Shown here: in pieces, positions 27,863-39,849 of the stretch
How positions within the stretch are numbered: the first letter of the stretch is position 1
Layout: each line of letters starts with the position of its first letter
IMG/VR virus record: IMGVR_UViG_3300009149_000037
Coordinates: 1 to 58,560 of that record
Source of the DNA: a virus
Lineage: Duplodnaviria > Caudoviricetes
Reading direction: 5' to 3' (one strand)
DNA length: 58,560 nt
Made by a program: the position numbers and the translations under genes
Notes under the pieces: generated by a model
Databases searched by the model: none
What the model saw: only the letters and a program-made list of their open reading frames with translations
What the model was told of the DNA's origin: nothing

Positions 27863-28038
27863 GGCAAGGTGGCGAAATGGTAGATGCTGATGACATAGAA
27901 GACTTATGAAGGTGTGCTATGTCCCCGAGAACAGTGAATAAACGCGAGTGACAAGAGGGTCTGGAAGGTCACTGGTTTTGATCCAGCAGCACTGTCGCGA
28001 ATTAGTAAGTCATGCAGGTTCGAATCCTGCCCTTGCCA
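27863..28038 (+). ncRNA. tRNA-like RNA with ~120-nt structured insert replacing anticodon/variable arms
   Basis: Acceptor GGCAAGG/CCTTGCC+A, Leu-like D arm GCGAAATGGTAGATGC, perfect T arm GCAGG-TTCGAAT-CCTGC. Confidence 0.75.
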
Positions 28039-28073
28039 TTTTACAAATCCCTGAAACTGACTGGAGAAATCTG

Positions 28074-28931
28074 ATGGCCGTTGTTACGAAGCAGAAACGA
28101 AAAGGCGTTAAGAAACTCACTGGAGATATCTTCGATCAAATTCAACCAATTGAGTTTGACGATTACTTGAAGATGAATCTTTATGGGAAAAGTGGAACAG
28201 GAAAAACTTCTTTGTGGAGCAGTTTTCCTGGACCAATTCTTGGAATCATTACTTCTGGCTCAAACAAATCTGGTGAGTTGAGAAGTATTTCAAAAGCAAC
28301 AATCAAGAAAAACAGAATTGAACAGTTCCCTCTTCAAGACCCAGACCAGATTCGGGAAATTGTTAAAGCCCAAAGAGACTCTGGACGATTCAAAACTCTA
28401 GTCGTGGATCATATCTCCTCGCTTCAGGATCAAGTGTTAAAGAGTGTTTTGGGACTGGATGAAGCTCCTACTCAACTCTCATGGGGATTGGCAACTCAAC
28501 AGCAATATGGAACGCTGGCTCATCGCATGAAGGATTACATGCGAGACCTTCTTGGATTGGAAAACTGCAACATTGTTTTCGTAGCTCAAGAAAGAGTCTT
28601 TGAACCTAACAATGAAGATTCTGAATTAGATTTGCTACCTTATGTGGCTTCTGCGGTGAGTCCTTCAATTGTTGGATGGCTCAATCCTGCGGTAGACTAC
28701 ATCTGTGAGACGTTTATCCAAGCAAAAACGGCAGAGAAAACGATTAAGGTTGCTGGAAAAACGAAGACTAAAACTATTCGCCTGTCTGGAGTAGAATACT
28801 GCCTGCGAACTGGACCTTCAGAAGTCTACACTACAAAATTCAGAAAGCCTCACGACAGTGGAATTGATCTTCCAGAATACATTGTTGATCCAACATATGA
28901 TAAAATCATGAAACTCATTCAAGGAGAATAG
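28074..28931 (+). CDS. AAA_24 / Sak4-like ssDNA annealing ATPase
   Basis: 'LYGKSGTGKT', 'TLVVDHISSLQ', 'IVFVAQE'; adjacent to the exonuclease. Confidence 0.85.
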   Translation: MAVVTKQKRKGVKKLTGDIFDQIQPIEFDDYLKMNLYGKSGTGKTSLWSSFPGPILGIITSGSNKSGELRSISKATIKKNRIEQFPLQDPDQIREIVKAQRDSGRFKTLVVDHISSLQDQVLKSVLGLDEAPTQLSWGLATQQQYGTLAHRMKDYMRDLLGLENCNIVFVAQERVFEPNNEDSELDLLPYVASAVSPSIVGWLNPAVDYICETFIQAKTAEKTIKVAGKTKTKTIRLSGVEYCLRTGPSEVYTTKFRKPHDSGIDLPEYIVDPTYDKIMKLIQGE

Positions 28932-30279: not shown

Positions 30280-30281
30280 AT

Positions 30282-30354
30282 GGTCCTGTAGTTCAATTGG
30301 GAGAACAGCGGGGTGCATCCCGGACGAATGCTGGTTCGAATCCAGCCAGGACCA
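30282..30354 (+). tRNA. tRNA-like gene with distorted anticodon arm (nominal GCA/Cys, identity uncertain)
   Basis: Acceptor GGTCCTG/CAGGACC+A, D arm GTTC-AATTGGGA-GAAC, T arm GCTGG-TTCGAAT-CCAGC. The anticodon arm pairs only as CGGG/CCCG around a 6-nt loop GTGCAT. Confidence 0.7.
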
Positions 30355-30475
30355 ATGTTATATTCGGCATGGACAAGGCCGATAACTTGATGCCTCTGAC
30401 TTAACCAGTCCCGTTTCCTTATTGGCATCTCAAAATGAGTGGGTGAAGCTCATTTCTTTTCTTTAAGGATTCAAC

Positions 30476-36660: not shown

Positions 36661-37418
36661 TGTCCAAAGTTAAAAATGCAACTGATTCAAGTTATGAAAT
36701 GAAAGAAGAAGGAAAATTCAAATGTTACATTAGGGAAAATTCTTCCGATGCTGTAGTCTTTAAAGATAACCTTCAAAAATGTCCTATTGAAAAGCACATT
36801 GAAGTAAATGAGAATCAGAAATGGGTTGACTTAGGTGGATACATTGGTACATTTGCAATGTTTCTCAGGTCTAGAGGTGTTGTTCCAACTTTTTCTGTAG
36901 AAGCTGATCCAGACAATGCTGAAATGTATGTAAAGAATATGGATCTCAATGGGATTAAGGATTACAAGCTTTTAAACAAAGCAGTGTTTCTAAATCCTCA
37001 AAAACCTGTAATGACTCTTTACAAGGGGAGCAAAGGAAGTAGAAAGAATCATGCAGCAAATACGTTTTTCTCTAGATGGAAAACTGAAAGGGACACATTA
37101 GAAATTCCAACAATTTCGTTTGATAAGGTTATGAAACAAGCGATCAAATATCTAGGAAAAGGAGGTGAATGGAATTTGAAGCTTGATATTGAAGGTGCTG
37201 AAATTGATATTCTTGAACGTGCTGATTTATCAATGTTTAACAACTTTTTCTTTGAGTATCATTTTCAAGCCGATAAATCTGTGAAACGAGCAAAAAGAAT
37301 ATTCAAGATGTTCAGATCAAAAGGATACACAGTAAAGACTAGTATCTCCCTTCCAAAAACTGCCGAACCTGAATACTGGACTCAAGAAGTGTTCATTGCT
37401 TGGATTTTCAAATCTTAG
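36660..37418 (+). CDS. FkbM family methyltransferase
   Basis: 'VDLGGYIGTF', 'VEADPDN', 'LKLDIEGAE', 'FEYH'. Confidence 0.88.
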   Translation: MSKVKNATDSSYEMKEEGKFKCYIRENSSDAVVFKDNLQKCPIEKHIEVNENQKWVDLGGYIGTFAMFLRSRGVVPTFSVEADPDNAEMYVKNMDLNGIKDYKLLNKAVFLNPQKPVMTLYKGSKGSRKNHAANTFFSRWKTERDTLEIPTISFDKVMKQAIKYLGKGGEWNLKLDIEGAEIDILERADLSMFNNFFFEYHFQADKSVKRAKRIFKMFRSKGYTVKTSISLPKTAEPEYWTQEVFIAWIFKS

Positions 37419-37431
37419 AAAGAAGTTAAAA

Positions 37432-38586
37432 ATGTCAAACCCTATTCGTGTTGCTGTAATTGGAGTGGGCAATTGTGCTAAGTCACTTATCTGTGGTGTT
37501 GCTTCTTACAAAGAAACAAAATCCACACAAGGACTTGCTTTTGCAAAAATTGGAGGTTACAAACCAGGAGATATTGAATTTGTGGCAGCCTATGATGTAG
37601 ACACAAGAAAAGTTGGTAGGCCCCTTAAAAAAGCAATTTATGGATTGCCAAATTGTTCTGACGATTTCGATGTTAATCAAGAAGAATTGAGTTCAATTTG
37701 TTCTGGAACAATTGTTAAGAAAGGAGCGGTATATGATGGGGTTGCTTCTCACATGTTAATTGCTCCAGAAGATGAAGGATTCAGAATAACAAAAGATCCA
37801 GAACCTTCTTTAGAAGATGTTGTTCAAGAACTCAAAAACTCCAAGGTAGATATCTTATTGAACTATCTTCCTGTTGGGTCTGAAGTAGCAACAAGATTCT
37901 ATGTTGAAGCTTGCTTGAAGGCAAAAGTTCCTTTTGTGAATTGTATTCCTGTGTTCATTGTTTCCGATCCTTTCTGGGAAGAAAAATTAAAGGAAAGAGG
38001 TATCCCTGCAATTGGAGATGACATGAGGTCACAGTTGGGTGCTTCAGTAGTATCACAGGCTCTTCAGGAATTGTTTTTCAACAGAGGAATGAATATACAA
38101 TTCCACTGTCAAACGAATCATGGAGGAAATACAGATTTCTTGAATATGGTAGATCAAACTCGTCTAGCTTCTAAGAAGATTTCAAAAGAAAATGTCATTC
38201 GGTCTCAAAATGACCTGAGAGGAATTCCTGTTCCAAAGAACGGAATTTATGCTGGTCCATCTTCGTACATTGCCCATCATGGGGACAATAAAATCGCTCA
38301 CTTCAGAATAGAAGCTACTGGTTTTGGAGGGGCAAAAGTTGAATTTGATGCTAAGCTCTCTGTACAAGACTCACCTAACTCTGCAGGAGTCGTGATTGAC
38401 GCTATAAGGTATCTACAGGTCGCTAAAGAAATGGGCCTCACTGGGTCTCTCAGAGGTCCTAGTGCAGCCACTCAAAAAACTCCCCCAGAACAGATGATGA
38501 TACAGGACGCTCACGAGGAATGTAAGACTCTTGCTGAGAGAAAACTTACTTCTTCCCTCTTACAACACAATAAGGTGTCTAAATGA
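37432..38586 (+). CDS. ino1: myo-inositol-1-phosphate synthase
   Basis: 'GVGNCA', 'NYLPVGS', 'GDDMRSQLGA', 'GGNTDFLNM', 'SKKISK', 'DSPNSAG'. Confidence 0.95.
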   Translation: MSNPIRVAVIGVGNCAKSLICGVASYKETKSTQGLAFAKIGGYKPGDIEFVAAYDVDTRKVGRPLKKAIYGLPNCSDDFDVNQEELSSICSGTIVKKGAVYDGVASHMLIAPEDEGFRITKDPEPSLEDVVQELKNSKVDILLNYLPVGSEVATRFYVEACLKAKVPFVNCIPVFIVSDPFWEEKLKERGIPAIGDDMRSQLGASVVSQALQELFFNRGMNIQFHCQTNHGGNTDFLNMVDQTRLASKKISKENVIRSQNDLRGIPVPKNGIYAGPSSYIAHHGDNKIAHFRIEATGFGGAKVEFDAKLSVQDSPNSAGVVIDAIRYLQVAKEMGLTGSLRGPSAATQKTPPEQMMIQDAHEECKTLAERKLTSSLLQHNKVSK

Positions 38587-38965: not shown

Positions 38966-39005
38966 AAAAAAGCCTCTCAGATATCTAACTGAGAGGCTTT
39001 TGTTT
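38966..39005. terminator. Bidirectional rho-independent terminator
   Basis: AAAAGCCTCTCAG / CTGAGAGGCTTTT between convergent genes. Confidence 0.85.
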
Positions 39006-39022: not shown

Positions 39023-39430
39023 TCAGTCAAACTTCACAGCAAGACCTTTCTTTGTTAGATAATAACATGTTCCTCTTACTTCTTCAGAAACAATTGATGA
39101 AACAAACCCTTGAACCACAAGATCATATTTCAGATTCAATTGGTTACGTACCAGAGCAAAATCTACTTTACCCTTTTCTGCAATGACAGCAACTGTCGCA
39201 GCAGTCTTGGAAGAAATTGCTCCGGCATTTTTCATTGCTTCGAACAACGCTTTCTTCTTTGGTGACCACTTGATTTTTTTGTTCAATTGGTCAGAAATTT
39301 CTTTTGGTCCCTTAGATTTTTTGACTACAGATTTTGGAGAAGCCTTTTTCGTCGTCTTCTTTTTCTTTGTTGTTTCAATTGCAGTGGTTTTCTTCGTCGT
39401 CTTCTTTTTCTTTGGGGTTGCAGTCGTCAT
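39023..39430 (-). CDS. Lys/Thr-rich (histone H1-like tail) winged-helix DNA-binding protein
   Basis: N-terminal 'PKKKKTTKKTT..KKKKTTKKASPK'; C-terminal wHTH-like '..YYLTKKG'. Confidence 0.65.
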   Translation of the reverse strand: MTTATPKKKKTTKKTTAIETTKKKKTTKKASPKSVVKKSKGPKEISDQLNKKIKWSPKKKALFEAMKNAGAISSKTAATVAVIAEKGKVDFALVRNQLNLKYDLVVQGFVSSIVSEEVRGTCYYLTKKGLAVKFD

Positions 39431-39459
39431 TTCAAGTCTCCAGTCTAAGAACAATGGAA

Positions 39460-39527
39460 GGCTGCCATCTTCAGGCCAGAGGAACCAAACCTCTGACGAC
39501 TCTCTCCCGCCATGAGAGAGTTTCGGC
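39460..39527 (-). ncRNA. Type II hammerhead ribozyme
   Basis: Minus strand: GCC-GAAA-CTCTCTC(ATGGCGG)GAGAGAG-TC^-GTCAGAGG(TTTGGTT)CCTCTGGC-CTGAAGA-T-GGC-AGCC; complete core plus L1/3'-tail pseudoknot. Confidence 0.9.
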
Positions 39528-39528
39528 T

Positions 39529-39702
39529 TTACTTAACACACTCTACAAGACCAAAAAACCTTTGAACTGTTTCATCAGCAAATTCACAATACGTGTAGGT
39601 CCTAGTCTTGACAACCGATTCAACGCGAGACATTCTGTTCTCGTTGAACACTACGGTATCGCCCACTTGAAGTTCTGAGTAAGTTCGCTTGATTGTTTCC
39701 AT
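39529..39702 (-). CDS. Small SH3-like hypothetical protein
   Basis: CTGGAG RBS; 'ELQVGDTVVF..RVESV'. Confidence 0.6.
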   Translation of the reverse strand: METIKRTYSELQVGDTVVFNENRMSRVESVVKTRTYTYCEFADETVQRFFGLVECVK

Positions 39703-39790: not shown

Positions 39791-39849
39791 GTTCAAATGA
39801 TAAAAATCTTCAAAGAAAATCTAAAGTTTTCAAAACTACAGGAAATCCA

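Follow-up and report, generated by a model that had tools for sequence, protein, structure and literature searches.

A type II hammerhead ribozyme of a widespread subclass between two minus-strand genes of a tailed phage

What would a self-cleaving RNA do between two small genes of a phage? The question is raised by a type II hammerhead ribozyme that lies on the minus strand, between a 57-amino-acid (aa) open reading frame (ORF) and a lysine-rich 135-aa ORF, in the IMG/VR virus record IMGVR_UViG_3300009149_000037. The whole of this linear record, 58,560 nucleotides (nt) with a CheckV completeness estimate of 82% and a GC content of about 0.41, is called the window here, and its PHROG matches, including tape measure, portal, head morphogenesis, DNA polymerase and helicase, are those of a tailed double-stranded DNA phage. 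We found the hammerhead sequence and architecture to be present in every detail that had been observed earlier at this site, and we consider it probable from the sequence that the ribozyme is catalytically competent and splits the two-gene minus-strand transcript into two monocistronic messages. The parts of the ribozyme are as follows.

39456..39528, minus strand: type II hammerhead ribozyme at its full extent, by Rfam RF02276 and by a subclass covariance model built here
39528, minus strand: 5' nucleotide A39528, read from the sequence
39527-39525, minus strand: 5' strand of stem II, GCC, which pairs with GGC at 39466-39464
39524-39522, minus strand: G12, A13 and A14, read from the sequence
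39521, minus strand: A15.1, whose partner U16.1 is at 39499
39520-39514 with 39506-39500, minus strand: stem III, 7 base pairs (bp) of CUCUCUC/GAGAGAG with the 7-nt loop AUGGCGG, by sequence, structural parse and minimum free energy (MFE) fold
39498, minus strand: C17, read from the sequence
39498/39497, minus strand: predicted self-cleavage site between GUC (39500-39498) and G39497, by sequence and by the C17/N1.1 position in the Rfam alignment
39497-39490 with 39482-39475 (hairpin 39475..39497), minus strand: stem I, 8 bp of GUCAGAGG/CCUCUGGC with the loop UUUGGUU, by sequence, parse and MFE fold
39474-39468, minus strand: core C3 to A9, CUGAAGA, in which N7 is A, by sequence and cmscan alignment
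39467, minus strand: extra U after A9, by sequence; part of a 'ug' insert in the cmscan alignment
39466-39464, minus strand: 3' strand of stem II, GGC, by sequence
39460-39463, minus strand: 3' tail AGCC, the pseudoknot partner of GGUU in loop I (39486-39483), by sequence and structural parse

Both the MFE fold and the cmscan structure line show the type II permutation, in which loops close stems I and III while stem II, of 3 bp, is open. The 7 bp of stem III are extended by the A15.1-U16.1 pair in the MFE fold, and the GGUU/AGCC pseudoknot consists of four pairs (two G-C, one G-U and one A-U). All 13 invariant core nucleotides are present together with the pseudoknot. Relative to the RF02276 consensus, the 3' strand of stem II is two nt longer in the window (the 'ug' insert), giving a 3-bp stem II and one unpaired U. 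In its core, three helices, pseudoknot, gathering score and class-level covariation the window's ribozyme agrees with RF02276; the exception is the canonical A9/G10.1-C11.1 junction, where U39467 intervenes. The original prediction, made at 39460-39527, had described the core, the GUC cleavage site, an 8-bp stem I, a 7-bp stem III with the core A-U pair, a 3-bp stem II, the extra U after A9 and the pseudoknot between loop 1 and the 3' tail. Each of these was read at the same positions, and the Rfam and subclass models reach 1 nt further at the 5' end and 4 nt further at the 3' end.

A cmscan of the whole window against Rfam returned two matches over threshold, one of which was Hammerhead_II at 39456-39528 on the minus strand. 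This match, in the Infernal comparison that had been proposed as a check of the type II assignment, scored 42.7 bits against a gathering score of 37 (E 2e-5), and the assignment therefore holds. In a second scan the same match had an E of 4.7e-9, and none of 14 control genomes was matched. Against our own subclass model, R1, the window scored 58.7 bits (E 6.2e-11). The window holds one hammerhead in its 58,560 nt, and a relaxed local Rfam scan around the ribozyme gave nothing else near threshold. Shuffled windows are expected to contain the bare core pattern 0.05 times (one match in each of 5 of 100 shuffles). Furthermore, the MFE structure of 79 nt is the exact three-way hammerhead junction, at -27.1 kcal/mol.

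The variant found in the window recurs in many other sequences. A scan pattern written to that variant (CCGAAAC, GTC, then CTGANGA-N-GGCAGCC) matched 109 stretches of viral contigs, for which a hand back-of-envelope estimate gave a chance expectation of about one, and more than 120 stretches, among the matches listed, of prokaryote contigs taken at one genome per species. Every stretch matched in either scan carried one inserted base after A9. The viral sample of 125 instances contained 86 unique cores, window included, and the inserted base in these was U in 75, C in 6, A in 4 and G in 1. When 102 unique instances were parsed structurally (three alternative regular-expression matches failed to parse), stem I had 8-9 bp in 90 of them, stem III ranged from 3 to 11 bp, and 100 had a pseudoknot of at least 4 contiguous pairs. 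The pseudoknot partners covary, with examples such as UGGCU/AGCCA, UGGGCU/AGCCCA and GGGUU/AGCCC. These results define a widespread subclass: its stem II is a 3-bp GCC/GGC helix, A9 is followed by one extra nucleotide that is usually U, and loop I forms the pseudoknot with an AGCC tail.

The subclass covariance model R1, built from 19 gapless members, gave 155 matches in 100 sources. In the covariation alignment of 122 distinct rows, 97.3% of the cells pair, a percentage inflated by the fitting of the alignment to the model structure, compared with 65.2% in shuffles and 33.5-48.1% in slid controls. Double-change cells numbered 587 against 180 in shuffles, and none of 500 shuffles reached the observed paired percentage, double-change count or covariation score. 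Changes on both sides were seen across the class in 15 of the 18 pairs, including all 8 pairs of stem I, and the columns of stem III covary. These class statistics count related sequences rather than independent events; the helix covariation is a property of the class only, and an orthologous copy of the window's own ribozyme was not found. Judged by this pattern of paired changes, the subclass architecture is under selection.

An inserted base at the same core position is known from a viroid. According to a review (PMC3705267, citing De la Pena and Flores 2001), the CChMVd (+) hammerhead carries an extra A between A9 and G10.1; changing this A to U raises the rate 3-4 fold, and C or G is detrimental. 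In the reported ranking U comes first, A is tolerated and C and G do poorly, and the frequencies of the inserted base in our class follow a parallel order; class conservation and the viroid study together suggest that the extra U is tolerated here. The likeness is limited to the one extra nucleotide, in that the viroid ribozyme is a type III hammerhead that serves rolling-circle replication and lacks a pseudoknot and an mRNA context. Because the family model scores above threshold, the class shares the insert and a viroid precedent exists, we do not regard the extra U as family-defining.

We also observed a complement that involves the extra U. On the minus strand, GAUGG at 39469-39465 (G8, A9, the extra U, G10.1 and G10.2) is complementary to CCAUU at 39457-39453, 2 nt past the AGCC tail. 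The same 5-bp complement, mostly with CCAUC, occurs in 51 of the 102 unique members, where shuffled tails give an expectation of about 6, and one member with a C insert has a matching CCGUU tail. The complement might form an alternative hairpin after cleavage, or the tail might be a second partner for loop I.

The ribozyme lies within the following unit.

39797..39825, minus strand: weak promoter-like site TTTAGA-17-TATCAT, by position only
39529..39702, minus strand: upstream 57-aa ORF, with ATG at 39702, GGAG upstream of it and TAA at 39531-39529
39023..39430, minus strand: downstream 135-aa ORF, with ATG at 39430 and GGAG at 39441-39438; a Lys/Thr-rich N-terminal tail is followed by a conserved C-terminal domain of about 85 aa
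38966..39001, minus strand: likely intrinsic terminator, a 9-bp GC-rich hairpin GCCUCUCAG/CUGAGAGGC followed by U6 (minus-strand T6 read directly, 38980-38966)

The 98-nt spacer between the two ORFs is occupied by the ribozyme for 73 nt, which start right after the TAA and end 25 nt before the ATG at 39430. The ribozyme had been placed between the stop of the ORF at 39529-39702 and the ATG of the Lys-rich gene, and the coordinates bear this out. By the measure used below for the class, the stop lies 2 nt before the CCGAAAC motif and the start 29 nt after GGCAGCC. The 57-aa ORF is preceded by an AT-rich divergent region of 147 nt, and the hairpin and T6 follow downstream, so that the layout, as read from the sequence, is the bicistronic one originally proposed, a co-oriented two-gene operon of about 0.8 kb on the minus strand. 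The terminator search listed the hairpin on the plus strand only, and the minus-strand T6 comes from direct reading; the hairpin is likely bidirectional and common to a convergent plus-strand gene and the two-gene unit.

The first 48 residues of the 135-aa ORF include 17 lysines. A full HMMER search with the C-terminal domain gave 36 proteins at E<=1e-3, its own protein included; the domain is always C-terminal, and all 36 proteins have a Lys/Ala/Thr-rich N-terminal tail ahead of it. No Pfam family over cut-off covers the C-terminal domain of this family, and among the 35 aligned members the low-complexity tail of one gives a match to the histone-H1-like HC2 model. When the 35-member profile was compared with PDB sequences, 9 weak matches at E<=1 were obtained, mostly to MarR-family regulators (best 6jbx, E 0.0016). 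A search of the ESM Atlas with the 135-aa protein gave no match of 0.9 or more, and the protein's own model there is poor (pLDDT 0.42). The C-terminal domain may well be a winged helix, as these weak profile matches suggest. The gene had been called a histone-like, Lys-rich winged helix-turn-helix gene. The Lys-rich tail stands and the weak MarR-type matches would fit such a fold, and 'histone-like' can be said of composition and architecture only, as no Pfam family was assigned; 'Lys-rich winged-helix, histone-like by architecture' thus appears a fair but unproven description.

Relatives of the locus are few. Neither blastn with the locus nor tblastn with the 135-aa ORF gave a match in 50,697 phage records. 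A pattern search for the 135-aa ORF in viral contigs listed 599 stretches, none of them confirmed, and a word-index homology search with the protein recovered only itself among 788 candidates. The subset-alignment search with the 135-aa family found one viral locus (L134, in the 57,327-nt record G018) and nothing in metagenome contigs or genome contigs; the Lys-rich protein of that locus, P0002, as a query also gave nothing in metagenome contigs. L134 is syntenic with the window, with a small ORF, the Lys-rich gene and an opposite-strand HAD/PNK-like neighbour, and is the single syntenic relative found. P0002 is 51% identical to the 135-aa ORF over the C-terminal domain, and the small ORF is 41% identical to the 57-aa ORF (E 1e-9), for which no Pfam or PHROG family was matched. 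Because homologues were found for each, both flanking ORFs are, judged by their conservation, real genes. The spacer of L134 is about 45 nt long and holds only a short hairpin.

The hairpin that takes the ribozyme's place at L134 has 5 bp (GGACC/GGTCC; L134 1801-1845).

More distant relatives, 17 in number, were retrieved through thymidylate synthase at 42-50% identity. No Rfam match lay within 4 kb of thyA in any of the 17, and a hammerhead was found elsewhere in 5 of the records (over cut-off in 3), always in other contexts. One of the six hammerhead sites in these records, at L023, precedes a Lys/Ala-rich protein with a winged-helix-like C-terminus, which aligns weakly to the window's 135-aa family (hhalign probability 32%).

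The gene context was then compared across the class. An upstream stop lies 0-3 nt before CCGAAAC in 86 of the 114 viral instances with an upstream ORF and, among the matches listed for genomes, in 48 of 89. A start codon with a Shine-Dalgarno-like motif follows in 119 of 125 viral instances and, among the genomic matches listed, in 83 of 93, in both sets at a median of 30 nt after GGCAGCC. On these positions, the operon-internal geometry is a feature of the class. The commonest downstream gene is that of a HARE-HTH protein (two examples match PF05066 at E 3e-13), in which the domain usually has a Lys/Ala-rich tail in front of it or is joined to a small N-terminal domain. It is downstream in 56 of 119 viral instances, as one family at >=50% identity, and in 51 of 83 genomic instances among the matches listed, and the upstream neighbours of the viral HARE-HTH instances fall into 11 families among 53. 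In the reverse test, 80 viral loci were retrieved by the HARE-HTH protein alone. At least one hammerhead match was present in 46 of the 80, and all 51 matches at these loci were on the gene's strand and upstream of the protein match; some of the contigs are also in the pattern-derived set, so that the contigs are partly non-independent and the retrieval criterion is independent. By these associations, Lys-rich HARE-HTH genes frequently, but not necessarily, have a member of the subclass as their leader.

We considered the window's 135-aa ORF itself as a HARE-HTH protein and rejected it. There was no PF05066 match in Pfam, and hhalign of the protein and of the 35-member profile against the HARE-HTH proteins of the class gave a probability of less than 3%.

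From the sequence, fold, family membership, class covariation and gene layout, the following course of events can be proposed for a transcript of the minus strand. The unit would run from the promoter region near 39800 through the 57-aa ORF, the ribozyme and the 135-aa ORF to the terminator hairpin near 38970-39001. Once transcribed, the ribozyme would fold and cleave itself between C39498 and G39497. When a hammerhead cleaves after C17, the upstream product ends in a 2',3'-cyclic phosphate and the downstream product starts with a 5'-OH. Here the upstream RNA would carry the 57-aa ORF and a 31-nt tail ending in the stem III hairpin (39500..39521) and the cyclic phosphate, and the downstream RNA would begin with a 5'-OH nucleotide paired in the 8-bp stem I hairpin and have a 67-nt leader with free GGAG and ATG. 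The two products should separate, because only the 3-bp stem II and a tertiary contact, the pseudoknot, bridge them. As a result, the stability and translation of the two messages would be uncoupled. The processing of polycistronic phage transcripts into messages with separate stabilities or translation efficiencies was proposed by Perreault et al. (PMC3088659) and repeated in a 2019 review (PMC6765202). Taken together, splitting of the transcript is most likely the right reading, and in our analysis the most economical one.

Several results weigh against transcript splitting, beyond the fitting of the covariation alignment to the model structure. The U between A9 and G10.1 is a departure from the canonical core. 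The z-score of the MFE is weak (-1.15), with 29 of 200 shuffles folding at least as well, and with 113 nt of context the MFE structure differs from the hammerhead fold. Promoter-like sites numbered 2, with 2.0 expected from shuffles; because the promoter-like site is no better than chance, we infer transcription from the conserved genes only. The one sequencing run listed for this stretch is a run of DNA. No hammerhead was detected in the whole record G018 by RF02276, and none at L134 by our own model (E<=1). Likewise, the other 34 of the 80 HARE-HTH loci had no Rfam family over threshold. Finally, the 5'-OH end had been called potentially stabilising, and whether it and the hairpin would protect the message of the Lys-rich gene depends on the RNases of the host.

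The MFE structure of the 113 nt is dominated by an 8-nt perfect complement on the minus strand between the cleavage site (39501-39494, AGUCGUCA) and the start-codon region (39429-39422, UGACGACU). This complement was examined as a helix masking the cleavage site and was dropped as chance, because its distribution across 96 class members equals that in permuted controls; it probably arises from the Thr codons of the downstream ORF. Replacement of the hammerhead by another ribozyme class at the 34 HARE-HTH loci was also rejected, as 0 Rfam families were over threshold there.

The absence of the ribozyme from the syntenic relative has a bearing on its role. Because the same gene pair stands in G018 at L134 without it, the ribozyme is dispensable for these genes, and by this comparison it is an indel between related phages and no fixed part of the gene pair. 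An active ribozyme without an adaptive role, a horizontally spreading intergenic insertion tolerated as cleavage between cistrons does little harm, would account for this presence/absence polymorphism, and for the lack of any match near thyA in the 17 distant relatives, of which only 5 match anywhere and in other contexts, as well as for the 34 HARE-HTH loci without a hammerhead. The element is also GC-rich (0.58, compared with about 0.41 for the window) and closely resembles members in unrelated, mostly high-GC contigs. However, the geometry is very regular, abutting the stop with the start about 30 nt on, and the element is kept upstream of one gene family while its upstream neighbour varies (11 families among 53), with all 51 matches at the protein-retrieved loci on the gene's strand and upstream. 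In addition, the fully intact core and the many compensatory changes speak for selection on activity. We therefore regard a mere tolerated insertion as unlikely.

Splitting of the transcript might also be subject to control. Cleavage could be regulated by ribosomes at the abutting stop, which would cover stem II and the GAAA core, by the GAUGG/CCAUU hairpin, or by the Lys-rich, nucleic-acid-binding product if it binds its own leader. The stop lies close to CCGAAAC in most viral instances and in 48 of the 89 genomic ones listed, as given above, and the downstream gene is recurrently a basic protein of DNA-binding type. The GAUGG-type complement, far more frequent in the class than in shuffled tails, is present in the window and restored by the CCGUU tail in the C-insert member; but the other 13 members with an insert other than U lack such pairing of >=4 bp, and the 51 members with the complement are related by descent and do not represent 51 independent events. 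Moreover, the CCAUC tail is equally complementary to loop I, and the MFE structure of the 3' product does not use the GAUGG/CCAUU hairpin. Regulated cleavage of this kind seems quite improbable to us.

That there is no ribozyme here, and that the resemblance arose by chance or the two hairpins act as RNase or terminator signals, would fit a fold no better than that of many shuffles, and is very hard to reconcile with a score above the curated Rfam threshold, a core pattern expected 0.05 times per window, an E of 6e-11 against the subclass model and the joint presence of the 13 invariant core nucleotides and the pseudoknot.

With transcript splitting as the preferred reading for the window, the less expected result is at the level of the class, where the subclass appears from gene context as a frequent, optional leader of Lys-rich winged-helix genes that is common in planctomycete genomes. 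By title, 59 of the 80 listed genome loci (L135-L214) are from Planctomycetota, with eight less obvious names checked. We offer only tentatively, as a rather doubtful possibility, that the subclass is a dedicated, transferable 5'-leader module for linker-histone-like phage genes, recruited to at least two families without detectable relationship. The families concerned would be HARE-HTH, the window's own 135-aa family and, as a third, the Lys/Ala-rich winged-helix-like gene at L023. If this were true, these messages would need a ribozyme-made 5' end, and the purpose might be a dose set independently of the upstream cistrons or a feedback of the protein on cleavage of its own leader. We found no literature linking hammerheads with HARE-HTH or Planctomycetes; ribozyme gene lists and supplements were outside this search and may already record the HARE-HTH link.

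Type II hammerheads in intergenic regions of phages and prophages are well known, the class having been known since 2011, and standard Rfam annotation would flag the one in the window. The window's ribozyme shares with the RF02276 type II hammerheads (Perreault et al. 2011, PMC3088659) the topology, the core and an AGCC-type tail pairing with a UGG-containing loop I. The same paper describes clustered prophage hammerheads, in the ardA region of Agrobacterium tumefaciens, in Clostridium scindens and in Azorhizobium caulinodans, which cleave polycistronic constructs of about 2 kb in vitro and, for one set, in vivo. Like the window's ribozyme these are intergenic among co-oriented phage genes, processing of a polycistronic transcript was proposed for them too, and related contigs are also multi-copy. 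The window differs from them in its single copy, which can therefore only split one transcript in two and not excise a gene-length RNA. HHphage of the haloviruses HF1 and HF2, also discussed in PMC3088659, is another viral hammerhead a few tens of nt ahead of a start codon; it is 13 nt upstream, and a mapped 5' end falls within 3 nt of its cleavage site. It belongs to an archaeal virus, its core contains insertions near C3, and it stands ahead of a helicase gene at the start of a polycistronic transcript, whereas the window's ribozyme has a canonical core apart from the extra U and stands between cistrons.

In Desulfovibrio vulgaris, in vivo cleavage is reported for three type II hammerheads that lie close to phage-like, DNA-binding and HTH genes, with both cleavage fragments captured from cellular RNA by cyPhyRNA-seq (PMC8782182). 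Those hammerheads are on a bacterial chromosome, and the window, known here from its sequence alone, is likened to them by gene context. The glmS ribozyme, as described in PMC6765202, resembles the window's in being a self-cleaving leader RNA whose cleavage sets the fate of the downstream message, in this case by degradation after cleavage; it differs in its cofactor, glucosamine-6-phosphate (GlcN6P), and in its single gene, and the hammerhead has no known ligand. The biological purpose of bacterial and phage hammerheads was described as largely elusive in that 2019 review (PMC6765202). The case is unusually clean: there is one copy of the ribozyme, in a unit of two genes, and a syntenic relative naturally lacks it. 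The gene partner of the subclass is recurrent and easy to test, and if the link with Lys-rich winged-helix genes reflects function, the benefit of self-cleavage to a phage message could be learned from this arrangement.

Multiple copies were observed in several members of the class. The listed genome loci include several per genome, for example four in Anatilimnocola sp. NA78, typically upstream of Lys-rich HARE-HTH genes. Among the matches listed, the Streptomyces contigs L137, L138, L153 and L154 have 5, 5, 2 and 4 pattern matches within 8 kb, and the viral contigs L038 and L097 have 10 model matches each, L074 has 9 and L102 has 7. In these dense arrays (L137, L138, L153, L154, L038, L074, L097 and L102) hammerheads stand between nearly every small gene. 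A pair of hammerheads separated by 250-700 nt flanks a gene of about 52 aa (starting MTEKDWD...) at L026, L029, L037, L077 and similar loci, and the next gene at the L026-type loci has an N-terminal domain with the motif MKKxE[IV]K[IV]G, either free-standing at 63 aa or fused to HARE-HTH. This domain had no Pfam match, and the window's 57-aa ORF, considered as a member of its family, showed no homology to it.

In the window as a whole, the plus strand carries nearly all long ORFs, and the ribozyme cassette is a small minus-strand island amid plus-strand genes. On one side of the island are a myo-inositol-1-phosphate-synthase-like gene and a small HAD/PNK-like gene, and on the other side are the genes for thymidylate synthase, DUF3310 and MazG. 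Two tRNA-like features were also observed on the plus strand. ARAGORN called a 91-nt tRNA-Gln (ttg) at 27949-28039, which Rfam did not list at its gathering threshold and which overlaps the start of the ORF at 27948..28931; the call may be spurious, or the tRNA may carry an intron. The tRNA-like gene at 30281-30355 scored 50.4 bits in Rfam and was called 'tRNA-???' by ARAGORN, with a two-letter anticodon (gc); its anticodon loop is one residue short of the consensus in the Rfam alignment and may be unusual or defective. The myo-inositol-1-phosphate-synthase-like gene that adjoins the ribozyme cassette (37396-38586, plus strand) matched PF01658 with an E of 7.8e-24 and phrog_33138 with an E of 2e-149, and myo-inositol-1-phosphate synthase is an uncommon auxiliary metabolic gene in phage.

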